The position numbers were made by a program, and so were the translations under genes. Shown one piece after another: positions 3,744 to 60,429 of a DNA stretch of 64,000 nucleotides (position 1 is its first letter; each line of letters starts with the position of its first letter). This DNA is from a virus. The notes below the pieces were generated by a model, which was not told the DNA's origin, did no database searches, and saw only the letters and a program-made list of their open reading frames with translations. Location: positions 1-64,000 of the IMG/VR virus record IMGVR_UViG_3300013939_000001. One strand, 5' to 3'.

Positions 3744-4181
3744 TTAAGCGTCCGCCATATCCCATGCCAGGATCTCCATCATCCCATCGGGACGACGGAC
3801 CAGACGCGGAACCAGCTTGAATTCGGCGTCTTTGATGACGGCCTTGGCGATGTTCTGCTTCGGTCCGTACAGCAACACGTCGGCCGACAGGTGTACGCCG
3901 TCGGGGCAGCGATCCTTGTAGCGGCGACGGATCTCGATGGCGAAACCGACCTGGGTATCATCGACGGTGTTCAGTCGAAGCTGCCAGGCCGAATCGGACA
4001 TGTCCTTCGGACGGTACGGCTCATCGACCTCGCCGTAGATGGTGCGATCGACCTTGGTGTGACGCTCGATCAGGTTGAACAGCTCTTCACGGCGAATCAT
4101 CACGCCGCGTGCTGCCAGGTCCTTGGTGGTGACGTCGAACGAAAGACGCGTGCGCGTCGGGCTGAGCTTTTCAGTCCTCAT
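3744..4181 (-). CDS. hypothetical protein (145 aa)
   Basis: Frame of ORF 3744..4286; start placed at ATG 4181 (MRTEKLSP...), 11-nt overlap with upstream stop; longer N-terminus would overlap gene 4171..4602. Confidence 0.6.
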   Translation of the reverse strand: MRTEKLSPTRTRLSFDVTTKDLAARGVMIRREELFNLIERHTKVDRTIYGEVDEPYRPKDMSDSAWQLRLNTVDDTQVGFAIEIRRRYKDRCPDGVHLSADVLLYGPKQNIAKAVIKDAEFKLVPRLVRRPDGMMEILAWDMADA

Positions 4182-5689: not shown

Positions 5690-6328
5690 CTAGAGTTCGC
5701 GGAAATGGACAGGGGTTTCGGTTTCGTACTGGGCGATGTCATCCGGCCAGGGCGCGGTAGCGTGGAGCAGGATGTCGTGACCCAGCTCGGCGCTGGGCAG
5801 ACCCTGGACCACCGTGAAGTCGGCACTGATACGGTCGTCAGTGGCCTTGGAGACGGCACGCAGGATCTCCATGGGGGTCAGATCGAAGACGCTGTCCAGG
5901 AGCTCTGCGGTGGCCGCTCCGCCGCCCCAGAACAGGCGACGCTCGCCGTACTCGTGGATGACGACCTTGCCAGACAGGAACTGCAGCTCGTGGATGCGCT
6001 TGTCGGTGAACACCAGGGCCTTACTGTGCTTCTGACCCTTACTGTTGCCGGCCAGGTAGTCGGAGAAGTGCTCGATGACTCCTTCCGGCGTGAGGCCCTT
6101 GTGTTCCATCATCCAGTGGGCATGGCCGAAGTTGTGCAGCCCACCGGTGCCGGAGGTGACCAGGATCTTTTCGCGCTTGCCGGTATCTTCGGCCTTGAAC
6201 TTGATGCGGTCGCGCTTCTTGGGCACGATCAGCTTGTTCACGCGTTCGGGCTTGGATTCGCCGACGCGATGGCGGTGACGGTCGGCATACAGCCGGTTGG
6301 TTTGGTGATCGTAAATGATGAGGGTCAT
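5690..6328 (-). CDS. HslV/proteasome-beta-like Ntn hydrolase, paralogue 1 (212 aa)
   Basis: Start placed at ATG 6328, which gives Met-Thr N-terminus MTLIIYDHQTNRLYADR. Later VNKL, LVTSGTGG and FWGGGAATAEL are colinear with HslV Thr1 / GDG / Lys33 / GFAGG / GSGG. The longer ORF-track start lies inside the terminator tail. Confidence 0.5.
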   Translation of the reverse strand: MTLIIYDHQTNRLYADRHRHRVGESKPERVNKLIVPKKRDRIKFKAEDTGKREKILVTSGTGGLHNFGHAHWMMEHKGLTPEGVIEHFSDYLAGNSKGQKHSKALVFTDKRIHELQFLSGKVVIHEYGERRLFWGGGAATAELLDSVFDLTPMEILRAVSKATDDRISADFTVVQGLPSAELGHDILLHATAPWPDDIAQYETETPVHFREL

Positions 6329-25143: not shown

Positions 25144-26136
25144 CTAGTTGACAGGGAAAATGCGGACAGGCAGGCCGGCGTAGGTTCGCTTCTCGAGATC
25201 CCAATGCTTTCGCTGAGTTTCGGACAGCGAGTGGACGTAGCGTTCCAGTGCCTGCACCTGGTCGTGACCTTCGATGATGACCGAGCCCCCGCTGAAGCCT
25301 TCGACTTCGAGCTGGTACTTCTCATCGCCTGGGATCTCACCGTAGACGCGAGTAACGGTGAACGGCTGACCACAGTACGTCTGGGCAGACAGCTCCCAGA
25401 GCTTGTGCTGATCTTCAGGCAGGTCCTGGACGTGGGCGATCATGGCCGCTGGGCGTGAGGTGCCGAAGACGCGGAACGTGGAGTTCGGCATGCCGTCGAT
25501 CACGACCTCGTAGGTCTTGCGAGTCCAGAACTTTTCGTGTCCTGCCACCGGGTTTTCTGCCGGCTCAGGCTGGAATTCGACAGGGAGCGGCAGTACGTTG
25601 GCACCAGCGTACTTACCGGCCAGCAGATCACGAACGTGCTTGACGTAGACCTTCGCCCAGCCATCCTCATGGATGAGTGGGACGTTGTAGGGTACGGACA
25701 CCTCATTCAGTCTCCCGAACGACTCCTCCACCAGGCTCTCGAACATGGCCAGGATTTCGAGGTCGGACGGGCTTTCCGGAACGACTTCCGTCTTGGACAT
25801 CACCATTTGGCTCAGGGCGCTGAAGAAGATGTTGCCGAACTCGAGTTTCTGGACGAAGGCCCCGTGGTCAGTCAACACCTTCAGTTCCGATTTGGCGCGC
25901 TCGGTCCAGACGAACTTACCTTCGCCATTACGCAGCGCCGGTACCTTGATGAATCCGGAGTCGGAAAGACCGGGCACGTAGGTGCCGCGATCGAAGCGCA
26001 CCATGACGAAGATCGGATTTGAAATGTGTTCAGCAATGTCGTCCCATTCCGGGCCGAGCTGGTGGCCGTAGCGGTCACGCCATTGAGCATATTCCTTGAT
26101 CAGGAGGTCGTTCAGGAACATCGGGTCAAGTATCAT
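25144..26136 (-). CDS. hypothetical protein (330 aa)
   Basis: ORF track. Confidence 0.75.
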   Translation of the reverse strand: MILDPMFLNDLLIKEYAQWRDRYGHQLGPEWDDIAEHISNPIFVMVRFDRGTYVPGLSDSGFIKVPALRNGEGKFVWTERAKSELKVLTDHGAFVQKLEFGNIFFSALSQMVMSKTEVVPESPSDLEILAMFESLVEESFGRLNEVSVPYNVPLIHEDGWAKVYVKHVRDLLAGKYAGANVLPLPVEFQPEPAENPVAGHEKFWTRKTYEVVIDGMPNSTFRVFGTSRPAAMIAHVQDLPEDQHKLWELSAQTYCGQPFTVTRVYGEIPGDEKYQLEVEGFSGGSVIIEGHDQVQALERYVHSLSETQRKHWDLEKRTYAGLPVRIFPVN

Positions 26137-26144
26137 AACTTCCC

Positions 26145-26924
26145 TTAGTTGCGGTTGTGGAGCCGGTCGATCTCTTTGTCAGCTTCGACCAGATCACTGG
26201 CGGTGGGATTCCACGGGGAGGTCAGCAACAACTGACCCAGGTCCCGCAGCGAGGTCGACTCGACCTGACCGTCGTGGTTGACCACGTACAGCTTTTCGGT
26301 CGATTCGGTCGGATCGGACATGTTGACCACCTGGATGATGATCGACACACGCTGACCTTCAGCCAGCAGACTGCCGAACAGAACGCCCAGCGAGTCCTTC
26401 GTACCGGCCACGTAGCCGGAACTGACGGTGAACTCGGTCGGGTCGTCAGGATTGTACTGGACGTTCTGGAACACCCCGCCCAGGGCCGCATGTGCGGTCT
26501 CGTGATCAGCCACACGGAACGGCAGGGTGTAGGTCACCCCGAACTCCGCGCGTTCTTCCTCGGCTTCCAGACCCGCCGACAGGCCGAAGGCGATCAGCGC
26601 CTGTTCCTGGAAGAACAGCGTGGCGAACTGACCTTGCTCGAAGGCGATGCTGGTGGCCTTGTAGCCGTCCAGGGTCTTGTCGTGGTGCAGGTCACCCGTA
26701 CGACGATCGATCAAGACCAACTCGCCGTCTTCTGCGGACATACCCCAGACGTTGAGCATGTCCGGGTGGGCTTCCAGGACAGCCTGGTTCTGGCGGAACT
26801 GTTCCGGGTCCACCAGCAGCACCGTGGCGAACTGACGGTCCTGCATGTCCTCGGAGGACACTTCGCGGGTGGTCGGTGCCAGGCGGCCGTCGAGGTCGAT
26901 GACGTAATAGATATCAGCGTTCAT
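26145..26924 (-). CDS. hypothetical acidic protein (259 aa)
   Basis: ORF track. Confidence 0.75.
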   Translation of the reverse strand: MNADIYYVIDLDGRLAPTTREVSSEDMQDRQFATVLLVDPEQFRQNQAVLEAHPDMLNVWGMSAEDGELVLIDRRTGDLHHDKTLDGYKATSIAFEQGQFATLFFQEQALIAFGLSAGLEAEEERAEFGVTYTLPFRVADHETAHAALGGVFQNVQYNPDDPTEFTVSSGYVAGTKDSLGVLFGSLLAEGQRVSIIIQVVNMSDPTESTEKLYVVNHDGQVESTSLRDLGQLLLTSPWNPTASDLVEADKEIDRLHNRN

Positions 26925-27627
26925 GGTGGAGGTTGTCGAAGATGTTGAGGAGGGTGGAGATGAGGACCATTACCGGCAGATCCGGCCATGCGATCTTGGC
27001 ATCGGTCAGCAGACCGTTGACGCCGTTGACGTCGTCTTCACCCCAGGCGTTGACCCGGAGGAACCTTTCACGCATCTTCACCGGAGTGTAGTCGCCACGA
27101 CCGACATGCCAGGCCAGACGGCTCATGACCGTAACAGCCATTTCGTTGTTCTTGGCGATCTTGAACAGACCGTTGATCTGCGTGGCCACATCGGGCTGAC
27201 CACCGATCACGTGCTCCACGTGCAGATCGGTCAGTTCCGTACGCAGCAGGCCGCCACGGGTGAAGTTGTAGGCCAGGCGATAGGTCTTGTCACGGGACCT
27301 GCCGTAGCCGAAGATGACATCCGGGACACCCACGGAGCGACGATAGAGCGTCAAGTCCTTCAGAACCGTTTCGGCCGGTCGAGGATCTTCGCGCAGTACC
27401 GTCGACAGCAGCGCACTGCCGGCATCTTCTTCGGGAGCCACGTACATCACCGAGAGGATCTTGCCGTCGAAGGAGACGACCGAGCTGGCTTCGCCCTGCT
27501 TTTCGACGATGCTGATCGGTAGCGGGTTCTTCATCTTGGAGAAGGTCACCGGCTCACCGTTACGCGTCAGTTCCTGCGTGCTCGGGTTGAAGATGAACAG
27601 CTCAACTGCAGGCTTTCTTTTGAACAT
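26914..27627 (-). CDS. hypothetical protein (237 aa)
   Basis: ORF track. Confidence 0.75.
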   Translation of the reverse strand: MFKRKPAVELFIFNPSTQELTRNGEPVTFSKMKNPLPISIVEKQGEASSVVSFDGKILSVMYVAPEEDAGSALLSTVLREDPRPAETVLKDLTLYRRSVGVPDVIFGYGRSRDKTYRLAYNFTRGGLLRTELTDLHVEHVIGGQPDVATQINGLFKIAKNNEMAVTVMSRLAWHVGRGDYTPVKMRERFLRVNAWGEDDVNGVNGLLTDAKIAWPDLPVMVLISTLLNIFDNLHHER

Positions 27628-27640
27628 GGTCAGTCCTTGA

Positions 27641-27826
27641 TTACTTGGCGGAAGGTTTGTGTGGCGTTTGTCCTACACTGCACTGTGGTACCTGCTGCCC
27701 CGAACCGTAATACTTGAGGTAGAAGTAGGGGCCCACAGTCACTGCAGCCAGAATGCCGAGGCCGAGCGCGACGAGCAAGATGAACACCACTTCGATGGGG
27801 GTCAGGCCCTTGTTGCTACGAAGCAT
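27641..27826 (-). CDS. small membrane protein with prepilin-type N-terminus (61 aa)
   Basis: Start placed at ATG 27826 (GGGAG 5 nt upstream): MLRSNKG/LTPIEVVFILLVALGLGILAAV = short basic leader, Gly-1, Glu+5, hydrophobic helix. Confidence 0.45.
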   Translation of the reverse strand: MLRSNKGLTPIEVVFILLVALGLGILAAVTVGPYFYLKYYGSGQQVPQCSVGQTPHKPSAK

Positions 27827-27836
27827 GGGATCTCCC

Positions 27837-28130
27837 TTAACGCCAGGTGTGTACGCCGCCATCGCAGACGTATTCGTTTTGGATCTGCAGTTCCTGCGTG
27901 GGTGTGTGTACGGTCTTCCCGTCAGACGACCATCCCGTGCGTACGACGGTCTTGGTCGTCATCTGCTGCTTGCCGGTGGCCGTGCAGTGGTTCTGGGCGA
28001 ACCACACATCCAGTTCCTTGTTGCGCTTGTGATTCTGCCAGGCCGGAATGAGGATCATGGCCAGAATCGCGATGATGGCGATCGCGATGATCAGTTCGAC
28101 CAGGGTGAAGCCTTTGCTACGGTAACGCAT
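27837..28130 (-). CDS. type IV pilin / pseudopilin-like protein (97 aa)
   Basis: Start placed at ATG 28130 (GAGGGGG upstream): MRYRSKG/FTLVELIIAIAIIAILAMILIPAWQNH is a canonical class III signal (G-1, F+1, E+5) plus alpha1 helix; two Cys in the C-terminal part. Confidence 0.7.
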   Translation of the reverse strand: MRYRSKGFTLVELIIAIAIIAILAMILIPAWQNHKRNKELDVWFAQNHCTATGKQQMTTKTVVRTGWSSDGKTVHTPTQELQIQNEYVCDGGVHTWR

Positions 28131-28150
28131 GTGTCCCCCTCGGACAGAAA

Positions 28151-28174
28151 GCAGGGAGGCCGTAGCCTCCCTGC
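28151..28174 (-). terminator. hairpin between HTH gene and pilin-like gene
   Basis: Stem GCAGGGAGGC/GCCTCCCTGC, loop CGTA, minus-strand tail TTTCTGTCCG. Confidence 0.5.
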
Positions 28175-28182
28175 GCGATGGA

Positions 28183-28476
28183 TCAGAAGCTCGCGCTCGG
28201 ACCGTAGGAGCCACCCGGCTGCTTCTTCGGAGCCTCGACCTTCGGAGCGTCAACCGGCTTGGCCACGTCCGCCCACGCCGCGCGGCGAGCTTCGGCCTGG
28301 TCCAGACCCAGCACGGCGGCGAGCTTGTCCACTTCTTCCAGCGTCGCCTTTGCTTCGCCCTTGCTGATCTGCGTCAGGCGCTTGGCCGTGATGTTCAGGA
28401 AGCTTGCTGCTGCCTTCAGATCCTTTCCTTCGAGCGCTTCGGCCACCATTGCGGGGAACTGCAGTTGCTTCGACAT
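28183..28476 (-). CDS. XRE/Cro-like HTH protein (97 aa)
   Basis: LKAAASFLNITAKRLTQISKGEAKATLEEVDKLAAVLGL fits the HTH_3 pattern; lies entirely inside the 3' extension of the upstream ORF in another frame. Confidence 0.6.
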   Translation of the reverse strand: MSKQLQFPAMVAEALEGKDLKAAASFLNITAKRLTQISKGEAKATLEEVDKLAAVLGLDQAEARRAAWADVAKPVDAPKVEAPKKQPGGSYGPSASF

Positions 28477-29281
28477 TGCGCACCTTCTTTTTGGAGTTGA
28501 TTTTCTGGAACGGGGGTGGGTCGGGATAGATGATCGGATCGTACGGGAGATTGCCCCCGTCGTTCCAAGAATCCAACGGCACGAACTCCGTCAGATCTAT
28601 TGCCAGGAGCCGGTCTTCGTCCAGGGCGACACGATGCCCATAGAGAACCAGTTCGGCAGAGCCCTTCCCGTCGGGCACCACCCTCCACAGGCGCAGATAA
28701 CCGCCGCTGTCGGTATCGCGTGCTGCACACGCAGCAGCCACAGCCATCGGGTTGAATCGATAGCCCGACTTACGGAACTTGGCAACGTTGGTTTCCTGCT
28801 TGAAGGTCATCGCGATATCGATGACCGTCTCCAGCCATGCTGAGCCGGAACCGACTACCGTCAGCGAGGGAGCATTTTCCCCTTCAACGTAGTTGCCATG
28901 TTTGCCGTATTTCATCCGACATTCGAACATGTTGCATTCGACTTCGAAGAGACCGTGTACGCAGATCAGGATGACCGTGAAGCTGAAATCGATACGCAGC
29001 AGTCCCAAGCCGCGCAGCTCCTCGAAATAGTCCAGGGCGTTGTCCAGCTGGGAGCCCTTGTAGAGCATGTTCATGAACAGGTCGACTTCGTTGCGGTGAC
29101 CTGAGAAAGCGTATCCCAGACAGACGTCCTGATGCTCCCCACGTTCGGAAACTACCGGCAACTTCTCGGTCAGCATATGGACCTTGTTCATATCGGCCAT
29201 GTCGTTCACATCGAGGTTACCTCGCGAACGCACAGCCGAATCGGCGACGATGTAGCCGTTGTGGACGACGATGCACGTCAT
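28250..29281 (-). CDS. HslV/proteasome-beta-like Ntn hydrolase, paralogue 2 (343 aa including a ~75-aa out-of-frame-overlapping tail)
   Basis: Start placed at ATG 29281 (ATGA overlap with upstream stop), giving MTCIVVHNGYIVADSAV...MNKV...GYAFSGH...VVGSGSAWLETVIDIA, colinear with HslV TTIVSVRRNGHVVIAGDG...KKV...GFAGG...IGSGG. Confidence 0.55.
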   Translation of the reverse strand: MTCIVVHNGYIVADSAVRSRGNLDVNDMADMNKVHMLTEKLPVVSERGEHQDVCLGYAFSGHRNEVDLFMNMLYKGSQLDNALDYFEELRGLGLLRIDFSFTVILICVHGLFEVECNMFECRMKYGKHGNYVEGENAPSLTVVGSGSAWLETVIDIAMTFKQETNVAKFRKSGYRFNPMAVAAACAARDTDSGGYLRLWRVVPDGKGSAELVLYGHRVALDEDRLLAIDLTEFVPLDSWNDGGNLPYDPIIYPDPPPFQKINSKKKVRNVEATAVPRNGGRSARRKGSEGSSKLPEHHGQAPDADQQGRSKGDAGRSGQARRRAGSGPGRSSPRGVGGRGQAG

Positions 29282-30018
29282 GGGGTCTTGCTCCAGTCGG
29301 TGAACTTGGACAGGTTCAGCCACACGCGGTTGGTGTACTGCGCGTCGACCTTCGTGTCCTTGGTCATGAGCAGATCACCCAGACGCGACACGCCCACGAC
29401 CTGCCAACGCTGACCATCGTAGGTCACGAACAACTGCTCATTGCCGATGACCTTTCTGCGATACAGCTGGAACTCGTAATGGCCCAGCCGGCACAGATTC
29501 AGGTAGTAGTGCGGGTAGACCAGGTCGTCGTGGCCGATGAGGTGGTAGGTCGAGTTCAGGAACTCATTGACGTCCAACCCACCGACGTCACTGGCCATCG
29601 CCAGCGGCGAGACCATCACGTCGCAGTAGATGTGCTCCAGGTAGGCCGCTGCCAACGAACGGTCGGCGAAGGATTCCTCGATGTACAGCTTCTTGAGCTC
29701 GGCCAGGAAAGCGCGCAGTCGATCGCTGCCGCACAACTGCTGTTCTTCGGCCTGGATAAGTACATCACGCACGCTCGAATGGGCGATCGCCTTCAGAGCC
29801 AGTCGGATACCCGACAGCGTAGCCTCGAAGTTCTCCAACGCATCGCCCAGCTCCAGACCCGAACGAACGTGGCGCCAGAGTTCCTTACCGGAGAAGAAGT
29901 TGAAGTAATGGACGTTGCTCTTCTCATCGGAGAGCAACTCCCGCAGAGGCTCGATATGTGCATCGATCAGGTTCTGGGCGAACTCGTCGTATTTGGCTGC
30001 AACTGCTTTGGGGATCAT
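29278..30018 (-). CDS. hypothetical protein (246 aa)
   Basis: ORF track; first gene after AT-richer intergenic region 30019-30167. Confidence 0.75.
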   Translation of the reverse strand: MIPKAVAAKYDEFAQNLIDAHIEPLRELLSDEKSNVHYFNFFSGKELWRHVRSGLELGDALENFEATLSGIRLALKAIAHSSVRDVLIQAEEQQLCGSDRLRAFLAELKKLYIEESFADRSLAAAYLEHIYCDVMVSPLAMASDVGGLDVNEFLNSTYHLIGHDDLVYPHYYLNLCRLGHYEFQLYRRKVIGNEQLFVTYDGQRWQVVGVSRLGDLLMTKDTKVDAQYTNRVWLNLSKFTDWSKTP

Positions 30019-33016: not shown

Positions 33017-33456
33017 TCCGGATTCCAGATCGGATGTTTACGGCGATGACTGCGCTTGTGCATGTGCACAAAACGCCCCCGCAACGGTTGGTGGGAAGGC
33101 ACGTACCCCAGCTGGTTTGTCACCAGCGTCTGATACTCGGTCAGATGAGCCTGCTGTTCGGTCAAGTGCTTGACCGCAGCCAGCATCGCATCGTGCATTG
33201 CCCGCTGCCCCGTCTCACGACGAGGAAGCAAGGCCAGACCCACATCCGGACCCGCCGACAGCAGGTTCGCATGCAGCTCAGCGATGTTGAGCTGGACAGC
33301 TACGCCGGTGTGGGGCTCAACATAAACGAGCGGGTGATCGAAACCGATGTTCTCCAGGACTTTTCGGTAGAATTCGACCGGATCGTTTTGCATCATCTCC
33401 AGAGACTTCAACGCCTCTTCAGGATCGCGCGGCTTTTCAAAGCTTGGGATCGTCAC
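33007..33456 (-). CDS. hypothetical protein (149 aa)
   Basis: ORF track. Confidence 0.7.
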   Translation of the reverse strand: MTIPSFEKPRDPEEALKSLEMMQNDPVEFYRKVLENIGFDHPLVYVEPHTGVAVQLNIAELHANLLSAGPDVGLALLPRRETGQRAMHDAMLAAVKHLTEQQAHLTEYQTLVTNQLGYVPSHQPLRGRFVHMHKRSHRRKHPIWNPEWT

Positions 33457-33757
33457 GACACCAGACCTCCAGATGGGCTTCCAGGATTCTCCCCGCCTGC
33501 CTGGATATGAGGACGTTGAGAACTGGCGGTATCCACAACACCACCAGCAGGAACGCGTACAGGATCATCAGCGGCAAGCATGGCGGCCAGGACGCCACAA
33601 GCCATGCAGTGGCCGCCACGACCATCGCCAGGATTACCCCGAGGATGCCGAGGGATGACGTGAAGAACAGGCGATTGAAGAAGATGCTGTAATCCTTCCA
33701 AATCGCTTGCGGTACGGTGTACCGCTTACCTCGGAACATGATGTTGACATCAACCAT
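33437..33757 (-). CDS. membrane protein (106 aa, 2 TM)
   Basis: Hydrophobic segments LGILGVILAMVVAATAWLVA and LMILYAFLLVVLWIPPVL. Confidence 0.65.
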   Translation of the reverse strand: MVDVNIMFRGKRYTVPQAIWKDYSIFFNRLFFTSSLGILGVILAMVVAATAWLVASWPPCLPLMILYAFLLVVLWIPPVLNVLISRQAGRILEAHLEVWCRDDPKL

Positions 33758-40390: not shown

Positions 40391-41623
40391 TTAGGCGCGC
40401 AGACGGTCACCGGTGACGTCGACACCAACGGTGTCTTCACCCTCACCACTCTCGAGGTTGGCAGCGTTGGCGGCCTTGGCCCGCTGATCCATGATCTCCG
40501 AGTAGTGGTTGTCGAACTTGTACTCGCCGGTGTAGCTGGCGCCGAGCTTCGGGGTGAAGTTGTTGATGATCTTGAACTTGTAGGTGATCTCGTACTCACC
40601 GAAGGTCTCGGTGAAGCCGGCATCGCCGCCGTTCTCGTGGTTCTTGTAGTAGTCGACGGTTTCGACCAACGGCAGTTCGATGTCGAACAGGTTGTCGATG
40701 TCGCCCTTCAAGCAGCCACGTGCCGTGAGCGTGGTGGTATCCCAGCGGACGGTTTCCGGACGGATGAAGACCGGGGTGCCGTCCTTGTAGATCGTCAGGA
40801 CCTGGGGTTCCACACGACCCCAACGCGGCACGTTCATGATCTCCAGGAAGTCGTAGATCTCCTTGTCGGACTTGCACGGACGGATCATCTTGGCCACGCT
40901 GCACAGCATGTCCCACGAGATGTTGTGGGTGCTGACGTAGCGGGTCAGGCCGGCAATCTGTGCCGGGGTCAGCTGGAAGTGCTCACCCACTTCCAAGGCC
41001 GCATCGGTACGCAGATCCGAGAAGGTCAGACGGTAGCGGAAGCGACCCGGACGGTCGTAGATCATGTCCGGGAATTCCTTCTTCTCGTTGCCGGTCACGA
41101 CGAACAGGACGCCGGTCAGGGTGCTGTCGGAGAACAGCGGCAGCAGGCGAGCACGTTCACCCTCGTCGTAGAACTTGCCGAACTCGTCGAAGTACACCAT
41201 GCACGGGCCGGTGGCGGCGATGATGTGGCGCAGCATGTCCGGACCCAGCGGCTGGGAGATCATGATCACCGGCAGCCCACCGCCGATCATCCAGTTGCCC
41301 AGATCTTCAGCGAACATCGACTTGCCCGAGCCCTTCAGGCCGGCCAGCAGCACGCCCAGGGACGGATTGTGACGATCGTAGTCGTCCTTGATGCGTTCCA
41401 TGTGGCGGTTGTGGTGGCCGAAGCGCTTTTCCGGCACGGTGAAGGTCGCACTGACCTTGTTCCAGCGGATCTCGATGCCGGTGATCGGGTTGGACTCGAC
41501 GACGATCTCGTAGACCGCTGCCGGCAGGTGATCCACCGGCGGGGTCGAAGCGTCGTGGAGACGGAAGTTGTAGTGGCCGCCGCGATCCATGAACTGCTTT
41601 TCGAACTTGGAGTTGCTGGACAT
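40391..41623 (-). CDS. classic-clade AAA+ ATPase, paralogue 1 (410 aa)
   Basis: Walker A LLAGLKGSGKS, Walker B MVYFDEFGK, sensor-1 VVTGN, SRH/Arg fingers YDRPGRFRYRLTF; about 170-aa C-terminal domain with NVPRWG. Confidence 0.85.
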   Translation of the reverse strand: MSSNSKFEKQFMDRGGHYNFRLHDASTPPVDHLPAAVYEIVVESNPITGIEIRWNKVSATFTVPEKRFGHHNRHMERIKDDYDRHNPSLGVLLAGLKGSGKSMFAEDLGNWMIGGGLPVIMISQPLGPDMLRHIIAATGPCMVYFDEFGKFYDEGERARLLPLFSDSTLTGVLFVVTGNEKKEFPDMIYDRPGRFRYRLTFSDLRTDAALEVGEHFQLTPAQIAGLTRYVSTHNISWDMLCSVAKMIRPCKSDKEIYDFLEIMNVPRWGRVEPQVLTIYKDGTPVFIRPETVRWDTTTLTARGCLKGDIDNLFDIELPLVETVDYYKNHENGGDAGFTETFGEYEITYKFKIINNFTPKLGASYTGEYKFDNHYSEIMDQRAKAANAANLESGEGEDTVGVDVTGDRLRA

Positions 41624-41685
41624 CGTGTAATCCTTTTGTTTTTCTGAGAGTGAGGAGTGTTGCTAGGTACTACAGGGGGAAAGTG

Positions 41686-43002
41686 TTAGCCGACACCGGC
41701 AGCTGCGGCCTGGGCGATCGCTCCGAACAGGGACGCCATTTCCTGACGATCCTCTTCATCCATATCTTCCATTTCATCGCGGATGCCTGCATGGAAGTCC
41801 GGGCTGTTGGCCGACGTGTAGCCACGGCCCGCCGACAGATCGAACGGGGTATCGCCCGTTTCTTTCTTACCGACGCTGCGGGGACGGTTTTCGAAGTGCA
41901 CGAACGCACGGTCTTCCGGATCGCGGATACGCGAGTTGGACATCACCGCGAACACGCGGGAACTGCCGCCGCCGGTGGGTGCCACGCGGAAGGTCAGCTT
42001 GAAATCGCCAACTGAGATGGTGATGTCCGCTTCGGCCTTGCGATACCAGTCGCGGGATTCCTGCAGCGGGATCTGGACGATACGCTCGATGTCGAACTTC
42101 TCGCCCTCCAGGCAGGTGACCGTCAGGTGCTGACCATCGTAGGCGGCCTTGTCGAAGCGCAGACGCTTGCCGTTCTCCACGAGCTTGACCACGTTCACGC
42201 CCGACCAACCCCAACGCGGTACGTTGATGATTTCCAGACGATCGCGGATCTCGTCTTCGGTCTTGGCGCCCTTGATGTGTTCAGCCACCGAGGCCAGCGT
42301 GTCGTAGCCGATGCGATCAGTGCGCACGTAGCGCATCAGGCCAACAGTCTGCCATTCTTCCAGGCCGTGTGCGGCAGCCACTTCAGCCACGTCTTCAGCC
42401 GACAGGCCGGCGAAGTGCAGGCGGTAGCGGAAACGACCGGGACGATCGACCATCGGGTCGGAGAACTCGTTGTAGTCGTTGGCCGTGACAACGAACATCA
42501 CACCGCGCATGTCCGAATCGGAGAACAGCGCGATCATCTTGTCGCGCAGGCTTGTCTTTTCGTAGGTCTTGCCGAATTCATCGAAGTAGATGATGCACGG
42601 CCCGACTGCCTGCACGACCTTGCGGATGAACGGTGCGGGGATGGACGACATGACCATCAGCACCGGAACGCCCTGGGCGCGAATGCCCCAATTGCCGAGG
42701 TCTTCGGCAAACAGGGACTTACCGGCACCCTTGATGCCGACGAGCATCACACCCATCGACGGACTTTCGTGGTGGTAGTTCTCCTGGATCAGGCTCAGGT
42801 ACTTCTCGTGAGCGCCGTAGCGGGCGCCGCCCTGTTCGAAGTGGGTGCCGCGCTTGGACAGGCGCAGTTGGACACCCTGCTGGGTTTCGATCATCTCGAT
42901 CTCGTACACCGCCGGGTCCAACTTGGTGGTGGTACGGGACGGATCGAAATGTTCGAACGTCTTGAACGTTCCGTGATCATGGAACTGACTCTGCATGTGC
43001 AT
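41686..43002 (-). CDS. classic-clade AAA+ ATPase, paralogue 2 (438 aa)
   Basis: Start placed at ATG 43002; Walker A MLVGIKGAGKS, Walker B IIYFDEFGK, VVTAN, VDRPGRFRYRLHF, NVPRWG; acidic C-terminal tail DEMEDMDEEDRQEM. Confidence 0.85.
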   Translation of the reverse strand: MHMQSQFHDHGTFKTFEHFDPSRTTTKLDPAVYEIEMIETQQGVQLRLSKRGTHFEQGGARYGAHEKYLSLIQENYHHESPSMGVMLVGIKGAGKSLFAEDLGNWGIRAQGVPVLMVMSSIPAPFIRKVVQAVGPCIIYFDEFGKTYEKTSLRDKMIALFSDSDMRGVMFVVTANDYNEFSDPMVDRPGRFRYRLHFAGLSAEDVAEVAAAHGLEEWQTVGLMRYVRTDRIGYDTLASVAEHIKGAKTEDEIRDRLEIINVPRWGWSGVNVVKLVENGKRLRFDKAAYDGQHLTVTCLEGEKFDIERIVQIPLQESRDWYRKAEADITISVGDFKLTFRVAPTGGGSSRVFAVMSNSRIRDPEDRAFVHFENRPRSVGKKETGDTPFDLSAGRGYTSANSPDFHAGIRDEMEDMDEEDRQEMASLFGAIAQAAAAGVG

Positions 43003-43006
43003 GAGG

Positions 43007-43171
43007 CTACTCTTTGGGCTTAACAGGAGCTTTGCTTTTCGGGAGCAAAGCACGGAGCTCGCGACGGCGGACGCGCTCTTCAGGAGTCACGTCACGCCCT
43101 TTGCGAACGAGTGCAACAAACTCAGCGTAGTCACGTTTACGCTGAGCTTTCGCGATGGGACCTTCGGACAT
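43007..43171 (-). CDS. small basic protein (54 aa), not in ORF track
   Basis: ATG 43171 overlaps upstream stop (TGATG); MSEGPIAKAQRKRDYAEFVALVRKGRDVTPEERVRRRELRALLPKSKAPVKPKE; its stop TAG is 4 nt before the AAA-2 start. Confidence 0.5.
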   Translation of the reverse strand: MSEGPIAKAQRKRDYAEFVALVRKGRDVTPEERVRRRELRALLPKSKAPVKPKE

Positions 43172-48704: not shown

Positions 48705-49031
48705 CTACTCCTTCGGCACCGGCAGCTTCTCGGGCGGCTGCCCGTCACGATCGACGCGTGGCGCGTTGTACGGCTCCAGGCCGGGCTTCCACAGCCAGAC
48801 GTTGGTGCTGGGGTTGTAGGACATGCAACGCAGGTCCTGAGCGCACTCACGCGTTTTCACACTGGCGAGGTCAGTGCCCTTGTACTTGGCCAGCTGCGCC
48901 TCCAGGTCACCCACCTTATCCGCCTGACGGAAACTCAGGATGGAAAAGGCGATGACGCTCACCAGGACCAGAATCTGCAGTGCGCGAACATGCCACTTCG
49001 AATCGTGATTGTTGTTGGAGTTGTAGGACAT
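48705..49031 (-). CDS. N-terminally anchored membrane protein (108 aa)
   Basis: Single TM ALQILVLVSVIAFSILSF followed by a short coiled-coil-like segment and a Pro-rich C-terminus. Confidence 0.65.
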   Translation of the reverse strand: MSYNSNNNHDSKWHVRALQILVLVSVIAFSILSFRQADKVGDLEAQLAKYKGTDLASVKTRECAQDLRCMSYNPSTNVWLWKPGLEPYNAPRVDRDGQPPEKLPVPKE

Positions 49032-49041
49032 GTGGCTCTCC

Positions 49042-49344
49042 TTAGCGGGCCGGGTAGAAATGGGTGGCGGTGACGACCATGGCGATGTTCACCATGACCC
49101 ACACCAGACAGATACCGAAGACAGCCTGGGCAGCGTGCGGCAGGCCAGTCAGATGGAAGGCCAGCGCGCTGGTGCCCATCACAACCACACCGACGGCGAG
49201 CAGCCACACCGGCATGATCAGGCTGCGGTTCCAACGGGTCGGACGACCCATGATCGAGGTGACGATGCCCACCACGTACAGAGCAGCGATCGGGGCAAAG
49301 CACAGCAGGAACATGGAAGCGAAGAGGGTGTCGATCTTGTTCAT
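49042..49344 (-). CDS. membrane protein (100 aa, 3 TM; holin-like size and topology)
   Basis: FASMFLLCFAPIAALYVVGIV, MPVWLLAVGVVVMGTSALAF, VFGICLVWVMVNIAMVV; ATG preceded by AGAGTAAACTC. Confidence 0.65.
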   Translation of the reverse strand: MNKIDTLFASMFLLCFAPIAALYVVGIVTSIMGRPTRWNRSLIMPVWLLAVGVVVMGTSALAFHLTGLPHAAQAVFGICLVWVMVNIAMVVTATHFYPAR

Positions 49345-49393
49345 GAGTTTACTCTTGAATGTAGGAAGGAGGTTGGAGCGTGGGGAGGGTGGA

Positions 49394-49675
49394 TCAGATG
49401 TAACTATTGGTCATGTTCTTTTCTTTGAGGACGCAGTTGGCAATGCACTTCTTCGCCTGTGACTTGGAGATGACGTCGCACGATCGCACGAGCTCATCCC
49501 AGTCGTTGTACTTGACGGCGGTCGGTCCGACCGGCACACGTTCCAGGCACTGGTTGAACAGCTCGACGCGCTTTTCCTGGTCGACACCGTATACTTCAGT
49601 GTAGGTAGGATCGCGTCGGATACAGCCAGTCAGTACGACGCCGGCGAGTAGTGCGAAGATGAGTTTCTTGATCAT
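49394..49675 (-). CDS. small lipoprotein (93 aa)
   Basis: Frame of ORF 49394..49909; start placed at ATG 49675: MIKKLIFALLAGVVLTGC (lipobox LTGC); upstream part of ORF overlaps 49684..49917. Confidence 0.6.
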   Translation of the reverse strand: MIKKLIFALLAGVVLTGCIRRDPTYTEVYGVDQEKRVELFNQCLERVPVGPTAVKYNDWDELVRSCDVISKSQAKKCIANCVLKEKNMTNSYI

Positions 49676-49683
49676 CGGGATTC

Positions 49684-49917
49684 CTAGTCGTAGGGAGGGA
49701 AGTTGAAGCGTCTGCCCCACTTTTCCATGCCTTTGAAGATGAAGGGAGTGGTGATGGCCATGAAGGCCAGAATGCCCATGCCGATGACCACTTCGGAAGT
49801 GGACAGACTGTAATGTCCAACCCCCAATGCGAACCCGCCAAAGGCAGCTCCGAGTCCCCAGATGAACGCGAGACCGGACAGGAGCATATAGACGCTCAGA
49901 TGGAGCCAACGGAACAT
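49684..49917 (-). CDS. small membrane protein (77 aa, 2-3 TM)
   Basis: LSVYMLLSGLAFIWGLGAAFGGFALGV and VVIGMGILAFMAITTPFIF. Confidence 0.6.
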   Translation of the reverse strand: MFRWLHLSVYMLLSGLAFIWGLGAAFGGFALGVGHYSLSTSEVVIGMGILAFMAITTPFIFKGMEKWGRRFNFPPYD

Positions 49918-52510: not shown

Positions 52511-53623
52511 TCAGTTGATGACGCCCACTGCAAACGATGTCAGCACGCGCGGAACCACGGTGTTGGTACGACGGGCGAACACGCGGAACTTGTACTGACC
52601 CAGAGGAGCGCCAGCACCGTTACGCAAGACCGTACCCAGAACCGAGGAGATGTCGCCCACACTGATCGGACCTTGGACCAGACCCGGTGAGATTTCCGAC
52701 AGCGTACGGCGTGCCGGAAGACCCATGCCGACCAGAGCAATGCTCGTTTCATCGCGCAAGATCTCGAACGTCGCTTCCGTACCATCCGGCCCGGTCACTC
52801 CCAACCACACTCGGTACTTGAGCAGGAAGTCCACAGCGGGAGTTTCCTTCGACCCCAGTGCGATCATGACCTTCCAGTCATTGGCGCCGGCCAGTGCGAG
52901 ATTGTAGTTGTAGCCGGACGAATCCGGTGCAACTGCGACATCACCGTTACCCACACGCGGGGAAGCGGCCACTTCGATTTCCGAGTTGGTGGAAACCACG
53001 AAGTTGGTAGCCGGGTAAGCGCCATTGCCAGGCTGATACAGATTGCCCGAGCTCAGGAAACTCGGCGACTGATTCGTCGCTACGGTGGGGGCATCCAGAC
53101 CTGCACCACCCGTACCGGGAACCGGCAGTCCGTCCAGAGCGAACGAGCTGAAGGTGTCCTTGTACAGCGGGCGATCTGGGGTCAGTTCGATCTTGACGGT
53201 ACCAATCCATGCCAGGCTCGCCGGATTGGCTGCGATGTTGACCGTCACCGGCAACGTCGTCGAATCCACCGGGCCGTCCACAATGTCTTCGGCTGCCAAC
53301 TTCAGGCTGAACATCTGGTTCAATCGCGGGATGATGTCCAACTTCGACTCGGGGCCGTCGTTGGGAACCATCAGCTCGGTCGCACCACCTTCGGTCGGAG
53401 GCATGGCAGTGCCCATGTCCAAACGAGTGTAACGCAACGTACGACGACCACGGAAGCCCGAGGACATCACACCGACTGCGACGATGTTGGTATTGCGAGC
53501 GGGAACGCCGCTGGGTACGGGAGTCTCGAAGTCGAGGTTCTCCGTACTCAGGAAGAGCTCCTGTCCAGCTTCGTTGATCAGATCAACGATGAGCTCTTTG
53601 CTGGGCTTGTTCAGATGACCCAT
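52511..53623 (-). CDS. virion-module protein, N-domain family member 2 with long beta-rich C-terminal extension (370 aa)
   Basis: N-terminus KPSKELIVDLINEAGQ..LDFETPVP...RNTNIVAVG...RYTRLDMG matches the family; the rest is Gly/Thr/Asn/Val-rich. Confidence 0.8.
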   Translation of the reverse strand: MGHLNKPSKELIVDLINEAGQELFLSTENLDFETPVPSGVPARNTNIVAVGVMSSGFRGRRTLRYTRLDMGTAMPPTEGGATELMVPNDGPESKLDIIPRLNQMFSLKLAAEDIVDGPVDSTTLPVTVNIAANPASLAWIGTVKIELTPDRPLYKDTFSSFALDGLPVPGTGGAGLDAPTVATNQSPSFLSSGNLYQPGNGAYPATNFVVSTNSEIEVAASPRVGNGDVAVAPDSSGYNYNLALAGANDWKVMIALGSKETPAVDFLLKYRVWLGVTGPDGTEATFEILRDETSIALVGMGLPARRTLSEISPGLVQGPISVGDISSVLGTVLRNGAGAPLGQYKFRVFARRTNTVVPRVLTSFAVGVIN

Positions 53624-55180: not shown

Positions 55181-56344
55181 TTACGGGACCGTCGCGTTCA
55201 GCCGCACGATCGGGGTACGGATGTCGGCTTCGTCGATGCCCACCAGACGAGACAGGAGGTAGGGGTTGTAGCCGTTTCCTGTGGCGATGTTGGACGGCGG
55301 AGCCAGCGAACCGCTGCCATCGGACTTGCGCAGTTCGGCTGTCAAGATGCGGCCTGCGTCGCGATCACGGCTAGCGCGAATCACTACTTCCGAGGCCAGG
55401 GTCTTGAACGGCGTGTTGACGCCGGCAACCTTCGCACTCATTGCGCCTGCATCGGCCGGCGAGGCGTAGTAGGTCGCATCGTCGAAATCGGTCAACGTGT
55501 CCGACGCAGTGGCGTTGCCTTCCTTCTCCCACGCACCCGGCGTCACCGTTGAGATCTTGCTCGGCAGAATCAACTGCGGACCAATCCCCTTGTCGAACAA
55601 ACCGGCGTTCGCATCGGAGATGATGATGTCCGAATACAATGAGGCGATGGTCACCTGCGCATTCAGGATATTGATGCCGTAGAAGAAACTGATGCCTGTG
55701 GTGTTGAGTCGATTATCGACATTGGTCGCGGTTTCGATCAGATCGCCATCGATATACAGTTCGAAATCGTAGGTACCTGCGGCAGCGCCGAGCCTACGGA
55801 TCGCACGGATTTCGATGTGGTACTCGCGACCAGCCACCAGGTAGGGATACTTCGTGACCGGGATGGCCGGGTTGTTGAAGAATGAGAGCTGGATGGCGGT
55901 GTCCGTTGTTGACGAACGAATCTTCAACATGACAAGGGCAGCGCCAGCATCGCCCGAATAGATCGAGAACAGCGGCACTACGTTGTTGCTGGTATTGATT
56001 CCCGGCAAGACCTTGTAGGTGAATGCCGTGCAGACCATCCCGCCTTCGGCCGGTGCGGTCAGGGGAGTGATGTTTCGCAGGTAGGCGTTCGTGTTTTGGT
56101 TGCCCATGCGCTTGACGACGAACGCATTACGCTCATACACCGAACCAGGGGACATCTTGTGGGCCGCCTGTCCCGACACACCAATCTGATTGTTGAGCGT
56201 GGGGCTAGAAGCAACGGCAGTACTGACGACCCGGAAATCCGGAGCGTAATGGGTCTTTTCGATACCGGCGCCGTTGACGATGTAACCGCCTGCGTCGACG
56301 TTACCGGGGTAGAGATCGAACCCCAACATATATTTCAGAGCCAC
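55181..56344 (-). CDS. beta-rich virion-module paralogue A1 (387 aa), putative fibre/baseplate/receptor-binding component
   Basis: Paralogue of 58015..59163 (MALKYMLGFDLYPGNVDAGG / MTLKLMAGFDMYPGAADANK; REYHIEIRAIRR..ELYIDGDLI / REYHIEVRIYRR..DLYIDGEFV); structural role is inference. Confidence 0.8.
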   Translation of the reverse strand: MALKYMLGFDLYPGNVDAGGYIVNGAGIEKTHYAPDFRVVSTAVASSPTLNNQIGVSGQAAHKMSPGSVYERNAFVVKRMGNQNTNAYLRNITPLTAPAEGGMVCTAFTYKVLPGINTSNNVVPLFSIYSGDAGAALVMLKIRSSTTDTAIQLSFFNNPAIPVTKYPYLVAGREYHIEIRAIRRLGAAAGTYDFELYIDGDLIETATNVDNRLNTTGISFFYGINILNAQVTIASLYSDIIISDANAGLFDKGIGPQLILPSKISTVTPGAWEKEGNATASDTLTDFDDATYYASPADAGAMSAKVAGVNTPFKTLASEVVIRASRDRDAGRILTAELRKSDGSGSLAPPSNIATGNGYNPYLLSRLVGIDEADIRTPIVRLNATVP

Positions 56345-56356
56345 GGGATTATCTCC

Positions 56357-57607
56357 TCAGGAAACTTTGAGCTGGACGGCCAACTTACCACTATCGGCGA
56401 ACTCCAGCGCGGCCGCTCCTGCGACAGTGTTGGGGACGAGGTTCACGATGCGTTGGTAATTCATGACGCCGGTCACCGCGCGGTTGGGATCGTTGGCCAC
56501 GATCGCACCATCGGACATCCTGGTCAGGCTGGTGGACAACTGCATCGGGGCCGAAGCGGGAACGTCACGCCGTACGCGACCATACATCATCACGCCGTTG
56601 ACTTCGGCGCCCACCGGCAATCGCAGATTGTAATTGGCGGTCATCGGTGTCTTGTCCAGCGCCGAGGTGACGTAGGTCGCGTCGTTACCATCGGTAAGGG
56701 CTTGGATCATCGGCACACCGCCGAACGTGTCCCATCCCGATGCGGTCACCGTTTCCAGCGCCGCCGGCAGAATTACCTGCGGACCCAGCGGAGCAGTCCA
56801 GTTACCGTCAGCATCCACACAGCTGCTGATCATCAGATCGGAAAGACCGAAGGAGTTGGTGTAGGTCGCCGCCTGCGTTGCCGTGGCCTGGATCGTGAAC
56901 CGAAGACGACTCTGGGCAATGGTGGTCTGCGACACACTCCATGGCTTGGCTGCGTACAGCAGATCGCCATTGACGTAGAGCTTGACATCCACAACCGCGT
57001 TACCGGTACCGGGATTCTCCCAGCCAATCTCAACTTCGAAATGAGTCGGCTGGCCCTTGATGATGTCCGGACAGAGGTTTGGACTGATACCACTGATAGC
57101 CCAGTACGAACGGCTTCCGGCGACCGCCCTCGTCACAAGTGGCGTTGAGCTCGATCCGAAGAACACATCGACGTTCGACGCCGGCATCGCAATCGGCGCA
57201 GCGGGATTGGGATACTCAGTAAAGTCGGTCAAGTTGAAGCCAAAACGAATGCCGTACTTGGCACCAACGACACCGGGATTGCCACGGTCAGGGATACCTG
57301 CCGTCCAGAAGGTCGTTTTCAGGTTCGTGTTGTTACCACGACCCGCTTGGAAGACGAACGTATTGCGGCGTTCCGCACCGACACCGATCTTGTGTCGCTC
57401 CAGGCCCGTCACACCGGCATTGTTGTAGCCGAAGTTGGCTTCCGACGGCAACGTCCACGGATAACCGTAGGTCAGACTGGTCAGTTCGTCTGCGATCGGG
57501 GTGCCGGCGTGGGCGCCCAGGATCGGGTCGTCCGCATCGACGCCCGATCCACCCTTAGTCCCGGTCCCGAAGATGTCGAAGCCGAGAAAATTCAAAACAC
57601 GTTTCAT
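56357..57607 (-). CDS. beta-rich virion-module paralogue B1 (416 aa)
   Basis: Paralogue of 59174..60418 (NAGVTGLERHKIGVGAERRNTFVF / NAGVTNLEKHRVGTGADRRNTLVM; THFEVEIGWENP..LYVNGDLL / THFEIELICENP..IWINGDLV). Confidence 0.8.
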   Translation of the reverse strand: MKRVLNFLGFDIFGTGTKGGSGVDADDPILGAHAGTPIADELTSLTYGYPWTLPSEANFGYNNAGVTGLERHKIGVGAERRNTFVFQAGRGNNTNLKTTFWTAGIPDRGNPGVVGAKYGIRFGFNLTDFTEYPNPAAPIAMPASNVDVFFGSSSTPLVTRAVAGSRSYWAISGISPNLCPDIIKGQPTHFEVEIGWENPGTGNAVVDVKLYVNGDLLYAAKPWSVSQTTIAQSRLRFTIQATATQAATYTNSFGLSDLMISSCVDADGNWTAPLGPQVILPAALETVTASGWDTFGGVPMIQALTDGNDATYVTSALDKTPMTANYNLRLPVGAEVNGVMMYGRVRRDVPASAPMQLSTSLTRMSDGAIVANDPNRAVTGVMNYQRIVNLVPNTVAGAAALEFADSGKLAVQLKVS

Positions 57608-57624
57608 AGGCTCCTCGTGATGCC

Positions 57625-58002
57625 TTAGTAAATGCGATGTTGCATGAGACCGCCCGGTACCGGACGAATCACGCGATCCTTCTGGCTCTTCAGGACGATA
57701 ACCGCCACTTCGTTCAGTCGCGTCTTGACCTGCACCGACACCACCGTCTGCGCAACGATCTTGGAAGAGTACAAAGGCTTGGACATGTCTTTCAGACGTG
57801 CCGAGCGCAGGTACTGTACTGCCAACATTGTTACGCGAGCAGGAGACGAAACGCCTCGCATGCTTTGAGCGGCGAGCATCATCACTCTCGAATCAGCGAT
57901 GGGGGTGAAGACACTCTGGCCGACCAACAGTGGAACTCGATAACTGGTGGTCAGCCGGTATACGGACTGCAGCGCGATCTTTGTTGCGAAATACTCGCTC
58001 AT
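57625..58002 (-). CDS. small virion-module protein S2 (125 aa)
   Basis: Paralogue of 54791..55168, same length and same position relative to the A/B genes. Confidence 0.8.
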   Translation of the reverse strand: MSEYFATKIALQSVYRLTTSYRVPLLVGQSVFTPIADSRVMMLAAQSMRGVSSPARVTMLAVQYLRSARLKDMSKPLYSSKIVAQTVVSVQVKTRLNEVAVIVLKSQKDRVIRPVPGGLMQHRIY

Positions 58003-58014
58003 GATCGCCTCCTA

Positions 58015-59163: not shown

Positions 59164-59173
59164 GATTGTCCCC

Positions 59174-60418: not shown

Positions 60419-60429
60419 GGGGAGGTTCC

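Follow-up and report, generated by a model that had tools for sequence, protein, structure and literature searches.

Two adjacent prepilin-like genes of a putative jumbo phage: an apparent graft of a type IVa pilin N-terminus onto a phage domain, and a helix-only neighbor

Introduction

Why would a phage carry, side by side, two small genes whose products begin like type IV prepilins? The question is raised by a 64-kb stretch of viral DNA (the window), positions 1 to 64,000 of record IMGVR_UViG_3300013939_000001, to which all coordinates refer. An initial annotation of the window had placed the two open reading frames (ORFs) on the minus strand, 10 nt apart, with mature products of 90 and 54 aa, and each of these particulars holds for the genes here called A and B:

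27837..28130, minus strand: gene A coding sequence (ATG at 28130, TAA at 27839-27837), 97 aa, chimeric prepilin-type protein
27641..27826, minus strand: gene B coding sequence (ATG at 27826, TAA at 27643-27641), 61 aa, helix-only prepilin-like mini-protein, accessory gene

The answer proposed here is that gene A appears to join a pilin N-terminus to a domain of a phage family, that gene B is a fast-changing companion, and that the pair could act on the type IV pili or the type II secretion system (T2SS) of the host, a proposal with about an even chance of being right.

The N-terminus of gene A

A pilin is defined by a short basic leader, a Gly at position -1, a hydrophobic residue (usually Phe) at +1, a Glu at +5 and about 20 hydrophobic residues. 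Does gene A conform? The relevant features are:

28110..28130, minus strand: leader MRYRSKG (aa 1-7), where the PF07963 and TIGR02532 alignments begin
28038..28109, minus strand: alpha1-N segment (aa 8-31), FTLVELIIAIAIIAILAMILIPAW, then QNH; F at +1, E at +5 (28095-28097), P22 (28044-28046)

The N-terminus reads MRYRSKG/FTLVELIIAIAIIAILAMILIPAWQNH, the slash marking the prepilin-peptidase cut predicted after Gly7. It has the class III signal in full (MRYRSKG/FTLVE, 19 further hydrophobic residues and P22), and in mature numbering the residues F1, T2, L3, E5, P22, W24, Q25 and N26 make up a complete type IVa alpha1-N segment, in which IPAWQN resembles the IPAYQNY of type IVa pilins. Both general prepilin models are matched well above their cutoffs, PF07963 (N_methyl) with 37.8 bits (cutoff 21.2) and TIGR02532 with 32.2 bits (cutoff 16.3). 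When the PDB is searched with phmmer, aa 5-40 align to Geobacter PilA, enterohemorrhagic Escherichia coli PpdD and Neisseria and Pseudomonas pilins at E ~3e-5. Together the two models and the PDB alignments bear out the initial description of this N-terminus as a textbook class III signal with an alpha1-N helix, here of type IVa.

The likeness does not extend to whole pilins. None of the orthologue models for pilins and pseudopilins (NCBIfam equivalogs for PpdD, ComGC/GE, PilA and GspG/H/I/J) reaches its cutoff with gene A; the matches below cutoff are PRK10574 (35.4 vs 138), GspI (24.3 vs 44.35) and GspG (20.9 vs 88.85). All equivalog matches span aa 4-41 only, so that the resemblance to pilins ends at about residue 40.

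How often would such a start be met by chance? All six frames of the 64 kb were scanned with a relaxed prepilin rule that asks for a leader of 4-15 residues, begun by Met and containing a basic residue, followed by Gly, a hydrophobic residue, any three residues, Glu and 17 uncharged residues. The rule is matched exactly twice, by genes A and B, with 0.005 matches per window expected (200 Markov shuffles and 200 codon shuffles).

The C-terminal domain of gene A

What, then, follows the pilin-like helix? In a pilin, the alpha1-C part of the helix packs on a four-stranded antiparallel beta sheet to form the head, and the protein is cleaved and N-methylated by prepilin peptidase before assembly into a fibre. 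Gene A has instead:

27840..27992, minus strand: two-Cys beta domain (aa 47-97), Cys49 at 27984-27986 and Cys89 at 27864-27866; of phrog_8826 type, not a pilin head

In the AlphaFold2 (AF2) model of gene A, built on a three-sequence alignment (predicted local distance difference test, pLDDT, 76.9; predicted TM-score, pTM, 0.39), a helix (10-46) leads into a long beta hairpin and a short strand (strands 50-67, 73-89 and 92-96). The pilin arrangement of alpha1-C on a four-stranded sheet is not seen in this model, whose moderate confidence leaves room for a weak similarity. Between about aa 44 and 97 both Cys are invariant across all aligned family members, which fits a periplasmic location, and the head is probably a small, disulfide-bonded periplasmic beta domain.

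Close relatives of this domain are few. An exhaustive phmmer search of 1.84 billion representative sequences returned two, the 89% relative of gene A and a 95-aa Xoo-sp14-like protein; three other matches were to repetitive proteins and were judged spurious. A profile search with the domain yielded nothing beyond the phmmer relatives, and neither gene A nor the domain profile picked up relatives when IMG/VR, JGI metagenomes and GTDB genomes were scanned.

The 95-aa protein, gp32 of Xanthomonas phage Xoo-sp14, is colinear with gene A, of comparable length and 45% identical over the head (tblastn E 5e-6), and gp36 of the same phage is matched by BLASTP at E 1e-5. The N-terminus of gp32 is an ordinary transmembrane (TM) helix, MSDKTKEVLSIIGFLLFLFAVIAGVVVAAV, without G/FxxxE, and P0008, which is 92% identical to gp32, matches no prepilin model. 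Gp36, gp141 of the Edwardsiella jumbo phage pEt-SU and an 85-aa protein of the Felix-O1-like Shigella phage ESh21 are further plain-anchored proteins that share HC-x2-T…G…P…Y-x-CD…W; like gp32, they lack G/FxxxE on inspection by eye. These proteins match phrog_8826 with E-values of 7.5e-34 (ESh21), 2.8e-12 (pEt-SU), 1.3e-4 (gp36) and 4.9e-4 (P0008), and gene A does so with 9.9e-4 over aa 15-96. The hhalign comparison of gene A aa 31-96 with phrog_8826 gives 98.1% probability (E 6.9e-14). By similarity and by its C…T…G…Y-x-C motif the C-terminal domain of gene A thus belongs to phrog_8826, and gene A lacks the ordinary non-prepilin TM anchor of that family. A Foldseek search of the BFVD with the gene A model gives a compatible picture, with gp32 at a TM-score of 0.65 and other small uncharacterized lytic-phage proteins at E 1e-4 to 6e-4.

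The family itself, phrog_8826, is a widespread and uncharacterized group of TM-anchored proteins of 85-105 aa in Felix-O1-like and jumbo phages. Members were located at 3878-4165 and 5945-6259 of Xoo-sp14 (L001), which thus carries two paralogues about 2 kb apart, at 254-541 of sequence L008 and at 350-607 of sequence L009. No additional paralogue of the two-Cys domain was found in the window, and the neighborhood of Xoo-sp14 gp32 shows no synteny with the window beyond the gene itself.

Because the head family is otherwise plain TM-anchored and the gene A model is unlike any pilin in the PDB, gene A is judged from its sequence to be a chimera, in which the first ~35 residues are a type IVa prepilin leader with alpha1-N and the remainder is a phrog_8826-type phage domain. 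Among the phrog_8826 members seen, this kind of anchor is confined to gene A and its 89% relative, and since several distinct phage lineages have the plain one, parsimony makes the pilin module the derived state. The earlier view of gene A as a pilin mimic therefore stands for the N-terminus and for the small Cys-containing head, and needs amending in that this head comes from a phage family.

Is the pilin-like start merely an anchor? It is possible, if doubtful, that gene A does the periplasmic job of phrog_8826 (for example an envelope- or injection-related exclusion) and that its prepilin N-terminus is an exchangeable anchor acquired by recombination, in which case cleavage by the prepilin peptidase PilD would be incidental and the pilus machinery uninvolved. 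This is the main rival to a pilus-directed reading. It draws on the ordinary TM anchor of every other family member examined, on the colinear architecture and length of gp32 and on a model without a pilin-like head; type IV pili are, besides, not prominent in some hosts of phrog_8826 phages. What speaks against it is the completeness of the prepilin consensus in gene A, which extends to P22, the QN motif and a charged Glu within the anchor, and chiefly the presence of a second, independent prepilin-like gene 10 nt downstream where only 0.005 would be expected by chance. Short pilin-like proteins, moreover, recur in phages (PHROG matches; PMC12952977).

Gene B

The neighbor is divided into two parts of different character:

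27728..27826, minus strand: leader MLRSNKG and hydrophobic helix (aa 1-33), with G-1, L+1, P+3, E+5 and GILAAVTVGP; conserved part
27644..27727, minus strand: tail (aa 34-61), with one Cys; predicted disordered; two haplotypes, YF/Q/PQ and IL/K/LE

Does gene B follow the same design as gene A? Its N-terminus reads MLRSNKG/LTPIEVVF, and the initial annotation had credited it with the same G-1/E+5 logic. In its minimal form, with a hydrophobic run behind it, that logic is indeed present, but L+1 and P+3 are non-canonical, the helix carries a 3-residue insertion relative to pilin alpha1-N, and neither PF07963 nor TIGR02532 matches even at E<=10. Gene B has no Pfam or NCBIfam match at all. Among 177,635 PDB sequences its two best matches are short Geobacter pilins, at E-values that are not significant (0.32 and 0.36); LRSNKGLTPIE…GILAAVTVGPY of gene B is aligned there to LRNRKGFTLIE…GILAAIAIPQF, with the insertion on the gene B side. 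Weak matches also connect it to phrog_13280 (E 0.036) and phrog_10597 (E 0.13), families of 59-67-aa proteins that gene A matches clearly. The AF2 model consists of one helix (10-40) and a disordered tail (pLDDT 43-55), with no head.

No homologue of gene B was found outside its own 90% cluster, and tblastn against phage records was likewise blank. In the 89%-identical relative on contig L002 the gene is cleanly missing through a ~199-nt indel, after which the same ribosome-binding site precedes the next gene. Gene B is thus, as far as the compared sequences go, an orphan present only in some strains. Where might it have come from? Its first codons resemble those of the downstream 237-aa gene, and the indel junction is ambiguous; gene B might have been born by duplication of the 5' end of that gene. 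An origin of A and B as recent tandem duplicates was rejected, BLASTP finding no significant similarity between the two N-termini; the ~77% DNA identity seen by eye covers 30 nt, too little to carry weight.

Start codons and coding constraint

Comparison with related contigs supports the start codons first proposed for both genes. The 97 codons of gene A have 3-4 synonymous and no nonsynonymous changes among close variants, and amino-acid changes are present in its in-frame upstream extension. Against P0001, the 89%-identical relative on a 315-kb contig, there are 10-12 synonymous and 11 mostly conservative nonsynonymous changes. For gene B, an alternative upstream ATG would give a 73-aa form; in contigs L004 and L006 a 1-nt intergenic indel shifts that start into another frame, which leaves the 61-aa form as the only conserved one.

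The codon changes point to purifying selection on gene A, and to selection on both genes as coding sequences. In gene B, codons 1-33 differ between the two allele groups by 4-5 synonymous and 0-1 nonsynonymous changes, and codons 34-61 by 0 synonymous and 6 nonsynonymous changes. The contrast between helix and tail gives ~0.005-0.015 in Fisher's exact test calculated by hand, a weak test given the linked sites of two haplotypes. Among the genes compared across the 20-kb locus, gene B has the highest nonsynonymous rate (pN). By this pattern of codon change gene B is a genuine accessory gene whose helix is conserved and whose exposed tail evolves fast, and pilins likewise combine a conserved helix with an exposed part that varies.

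It is possible, again on the doubtful side, that gene B is an unrelated orphan, a small membrane protein in which G-1 and E+5 coincide by accident, and perhaps a young gene that arose when ~199 nt were inserted where the downstream 237-aa gene begins. The failure of the Pfam and NCBIfam models, the lack of homologues beyond the 90% cluster, the absence from the L002 relative, the first codons shared in kind with the downstream gene and the lack of significant A/B similarity in BLASTP are all in keeping with this. They have to be set against the two best PDB matches, both of them short pilins, with an alignment that runs from the leader to GILAA..P (though with E ~0.3), against the position next to gene A, and against the conserved helix with its variable tail. 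On balance, pilin ancestry of gene B is likely, though not proven.

Genomic context and transcription

The elements between the genes were read off the sequence:

28134..28141, minus strand: Shine-Dalgarno site of gene A, GAGGGGGA
27831..27838, minus strand: Shine-Dalgarno site of gene B, AAGGGAGA, overlapping the gene A stop codon
28151..28174, minus strand: GC-rich hairpin GCAGGGAGGC-TACG-GCCTCCCTGC, then TTTCTG, between the upstream helix-turn-helix (HTH) gene and gene A

With 10 nt between them, A and B thus each have a Shine-Dalgarno site. The hairpin (10-bp stem and T-run) lies directly upstream of the ribosome-binding site of gene A; its stem is identical in the 89% relative (L002 9958-9981), where the loop is TTCG. 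It looks like a terminator and leaves no space for a promoter ahead of gene A, and it could be one, or else an RNA-stability or attenuation element controlling gene A. As no sigma-70-like promoter was found near gene A and the hairpin stands ahead of it, A and B are probably co-transcribed with the downstream genes, via read-through or an unrecognized phage promoter.

To which virus do the genes belong? RecJ of the window is 58% identical to that of the Xanthomonas jumbo phage RTH11 and 55% to that of LucasX, and 44 blocks of a public assembly collection contain the identical gene A sequence, on metagenomic contigs of up to ~314 kb. The G+C content of the window is ~58%, as is that of Xoo-sp14 (PMC7686423). 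Upstream of gene A lie an HslV-like peptidase ORF and the HTH gene that overlaps it; downstream of gene B follow orphans, a DnaB-like helicase and RecJ. These neighbors are regulatory, peptidase-like and replication genes, with no virion genes among them. Genes A and B are best explained as accessory genes without a structural role, carried by a jumbo phage of ~314 kb that is related to Xanthomonas phages; as its host we infer one of the Xanthomonadaceae or a proteobacterium like them. The window holds no tRNAs that could serve as a clue to the host. No match to 50,697 phage records was returned by megablast of 26000-30000, nor to phage records by tblastn of the downstream 237-aa gene.

A virion-structural role for A and B is unlikely in this neighborhood. 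The broader idea that they are lysis, spanin or holin components or structural proteins is very improbable. They are small membrane proteins with a topology like that of T4 RI and the i-spanins; but neither has a lipobox, gene B is dispensable, the neighbors are regulatory and replication genes, the only structural-protein match found lies at 52511-53623, and small membrane ORFs resembling holins, lipoproteins and spanins are clustered elsewhere, at 48705-49917. On the strength of the absent lipobox, the dispensability of B and that separate cluster (48.7-49.9 kb), the reading of A and B as a lysis cassette was rejected.

The cluster at 48705-49917 (minus strand) comprises four small membrane ORFs, none with a Pfam match: one of 77 aa whose sequence suggests two TM segments, a lipoprotein-like one of 93 aa (MIKKLIFALLAGVVLTGC), one of 100 aa with three TM segments and an N-terminally anchored one of 108 aa. 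It resembles a holin/spanin-type lysis cassette or an exclusion cluster.

Other features of the window deserve mention. The HTH-type ORF (28183-28476, minus strand, 97 aa) matches phrog_638 at E 1e-5 and falls just under the cutoffs of Pfam HTH_31 and HTH_3. It overlaps, in another frame, the final ~227 nt of the 343-aa HslV-like peptidase ORF (28250-29281, minus strand; phrog_1040, E 9e-8). The synonymous/nonsynonymous counts are 4/1 and 16/17 for the HTH frame and 0/3 and 3/19 for the tail of the peptidase frame; as these favor the HTH frame, the stretch rich in Arg and Gly that ends the called 343-aa protein is probably unconstrained read-on. A 106-aa ORF with two TM segments in a hydrophobicity scan (L003 4374-4694, window ~33437-33757, minus strand) with its equivalent in L003/L004 has the highest nonsynonymous-to-synonymous ratio (pN/pS) of the locus between close variants (0.71, with 10 nonsynonymous changes); like gene B, it may be an accessory membrane gene that evolves fast. 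At 55181-61590 (minus strand) a run of five ORFs, each of 386-416 aa and none with a PHROG match, may form a paralogue array.

Proposed mechanism

Which machine would process such proteins? The initial annotation held that the window has no pilus assembly genes. In a partial check, this was borne out for PilC- and PilD-like genes, no ORF of the window having more than three hydrophobic segments and thus none looking like either, and for PilB/PilT-like genes, the tandem ATPases of the window matching AAA (PF00004) and no other Pfam family at E<=0.01. Nor was any link to PilB/C/D/Q or Gsp genes seen within the 64 kb. Processing would consequently have to use the prepilin peptidase of the host. 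The tandem ATPases, two paralogues of 410 and 455 aa at 40391-43053 (minus strand; phrog_2376, E ~1e-40; PF00004), had been candidates for PilB/PilT-like proteins, which their AAA assignment rules out.

The reading favored here is that A and B are pilin mimics processed by the host PilD and acting on type IV pili or the T2SS, and from the sequences it stands at roughly even chances. Both would be bitopic inner-membrane proteins imitating the N-terminus of a type IV pilin, inserted with the N-terminus in the cytoplasm and the C-terminus in the periplasm. The host prepilin peptidase (PilD/XpsO) would cut the gene A product after Gly7 and methylate Phe8, and the pilin-type helix with its Glu5 would be taken up by the type IV pilus machine of the host. 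Uptake by the T2SS is less likely, since the IPAWQN motif and the best model matches are of the type IV pilus type. The phage head domain would then either be built into the fibre or jam its assembly, with gene B as a helix-only, mini-pilin-like partner bearing a fast-evolving exposed tail. With pili altered or removed, phages that depend on pili, be they rivals or progeny of the phage itself, would no longer adsorb to the infected cell. By analogy, it is plausible that A and B serve superinfection exclusion or a similar purpose directed at pili or the T2SS.

Several observations weigh against this. Foldseek of the gene A model, itself of moderate confidence, against the PDB returned no pilin and nothing significant (best E 0.49). 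The core function of the head family would not be pilus-specific, given its plain-anchored members in phages of Shigella, Escherichia coli and Edwardsiella. Gene B escapes the curated prepilin models and is not required in a close relative. The divergence time between the window and the L002 relative is short, which makes the retention of G-1 and E+5 weak evidence of constraint. Finally, one related jumbo phage (related according to the LucasX paper) is described as flagella-dependent (PMC11898562).

Alternatively, A and/or B may be decoy substrates that compete non-productively for the prepilin peptidase or the assembly platform, shutting down the maturation of host pilins and pseudopilins (type IV pili and T2SS) without entering the fibre. 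The N-terminal evidence is the same as for incorporation, and Pro+3 and the 3-residue insertion could make gene B a poor subunit that still binds; inhibition of assembly has also been raised for truncated PilA (Sztanko et al., PMC12952977). Yet nothing separates a decoy from an incorporated subunit, and high expression would be needed. This variant is rather improbable.

A bolder form of the pilin-mimic reading is unlikely as well, if somewhat less so than the decoy. The pilin leader and assembly helix would be grafted on the phage's own periplasmic effector domain, for the type IV pilus or T2SS machinery of the host to display on the fibre or export through it. The pilin "address label" would then be a modular delivery tag for non-pilin cargo, and the hypervariable gene B a strain-specific companion in an arms race between phages.

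Significance

That phage pilin look-alikes protect infected or lysogenic cells from pilus-dependent phages has been shown only recently, and this locus would extend the idea to lytic-type jumbo phages related to Xanthomonas phages. Gene A and Xoo-sp14 gp32 form a natural anchor-swap pair, which could reveal what a pilin N-terminus contributes to processing, membrane extraction and fibre entry, and the locus provides a first functional lead for the uncharacterized phrog_8826 family. Should the pili or T2SS of plant-pathogenic Xanthomonadaceae, the presumed hosts, be blocked or remodelled in this way, the finding would bear on the design of phage cocktails and on virulence.

Comparison with known systems

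How do A and B compare with what is known? With bacterial type IVa pilins (PilA, PpdD) and the short Geobacter PilA-N, gene A shares the basic leader, G-1, F+1, E+5, P22 and Y/W24-Q-N, and its size is comparable to that of the smallest pilins. It differs in having no detected alpha-beta roll head, in reaching no equivalog cutoff and in not lying beside pil genes; its disulfide, moreover, would span the whole head and not a C-terminal D-region loop.

With phrog_8826, gene A shares the C-terminal motif HC-x2-T…G…P…Y-x-C-D…W, a length within 85-105 aa and the layout with the N-terminus inside and the C-terminus outside. The members from lytic myoviruses (ESh21, pEt-SU gp141, Xoo-sp14 gp32 and gp36) are plain-anchored, whereas gene A is prepilin-anchored.

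Tip, Aqs1 and Zip are non-pilin phage inhibitors of type IV pili, and some such inhibitors target the PilB ATPase. The likely outcome would be the same as for A and B, pili being lost or altered and pilus-dependent phages excluded, but these proteins are not pilin-like and lack class III signals. Several Pseudomonas prophage proteins are known to inhibit type IV pili without being pilins (cited in PMC12952977).

The closest functional parallels are phage-encoded pilins. As Sztanko et al. showed (Cell Rep 2026, PMC12952977), prophage-encoded FimU becomes part of the type IV pilus and shuts out phages that attach to the pilus tip, and virulent phages encode PilA-like proteins, among them a ~60-residue truncated PilA in six Pseudomonas phages (PMC12952977). 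Like A and B, the P-FimU of F10-like Pseudomonas prophages and phage PilA have a pilin N-terminus, come without assembly genes of their own and need the host machine; their proposed or demonstrated role is to block the adsorption of pilus-dependent phages. The truncated PilA of ~60 aa is, as gene B, helix-only, and the ascription of diversity to competition between phages (Sztanko et al., PMC12952977) fits the variable tail of gene B. P-FimU and P-PilA, in contrast, resemble host pilins over their full length (~30-50% identity), while gene A has no such similarity to host FimU or PilA, no FimU-type match and a head unrelated to any pilin. Host group and phage type also differ, A and B belonging to a Xanthomonas-phage-related jumbo phage.

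A further precedent is the archaeal provirus SNJ2, whose two tandem pilins are assembled by the host machinery (PMC12426801). Two adjacent virus-encoded pilin genes relying on host secretion and assembly are common to both cases, but SNJ2 is a temperate archaeal virus, and its full pilins form filaments of their own that serve as receptor for another virus (PMC12426801). In view of SNJ2 and of the work of Sztanko et al. (PMC12952977), phage pilin mimicry counts as a known kind of strategy; what would be new here is the jumbo-phage setting and a chimeric design with a natural plain-anchor counterpart.

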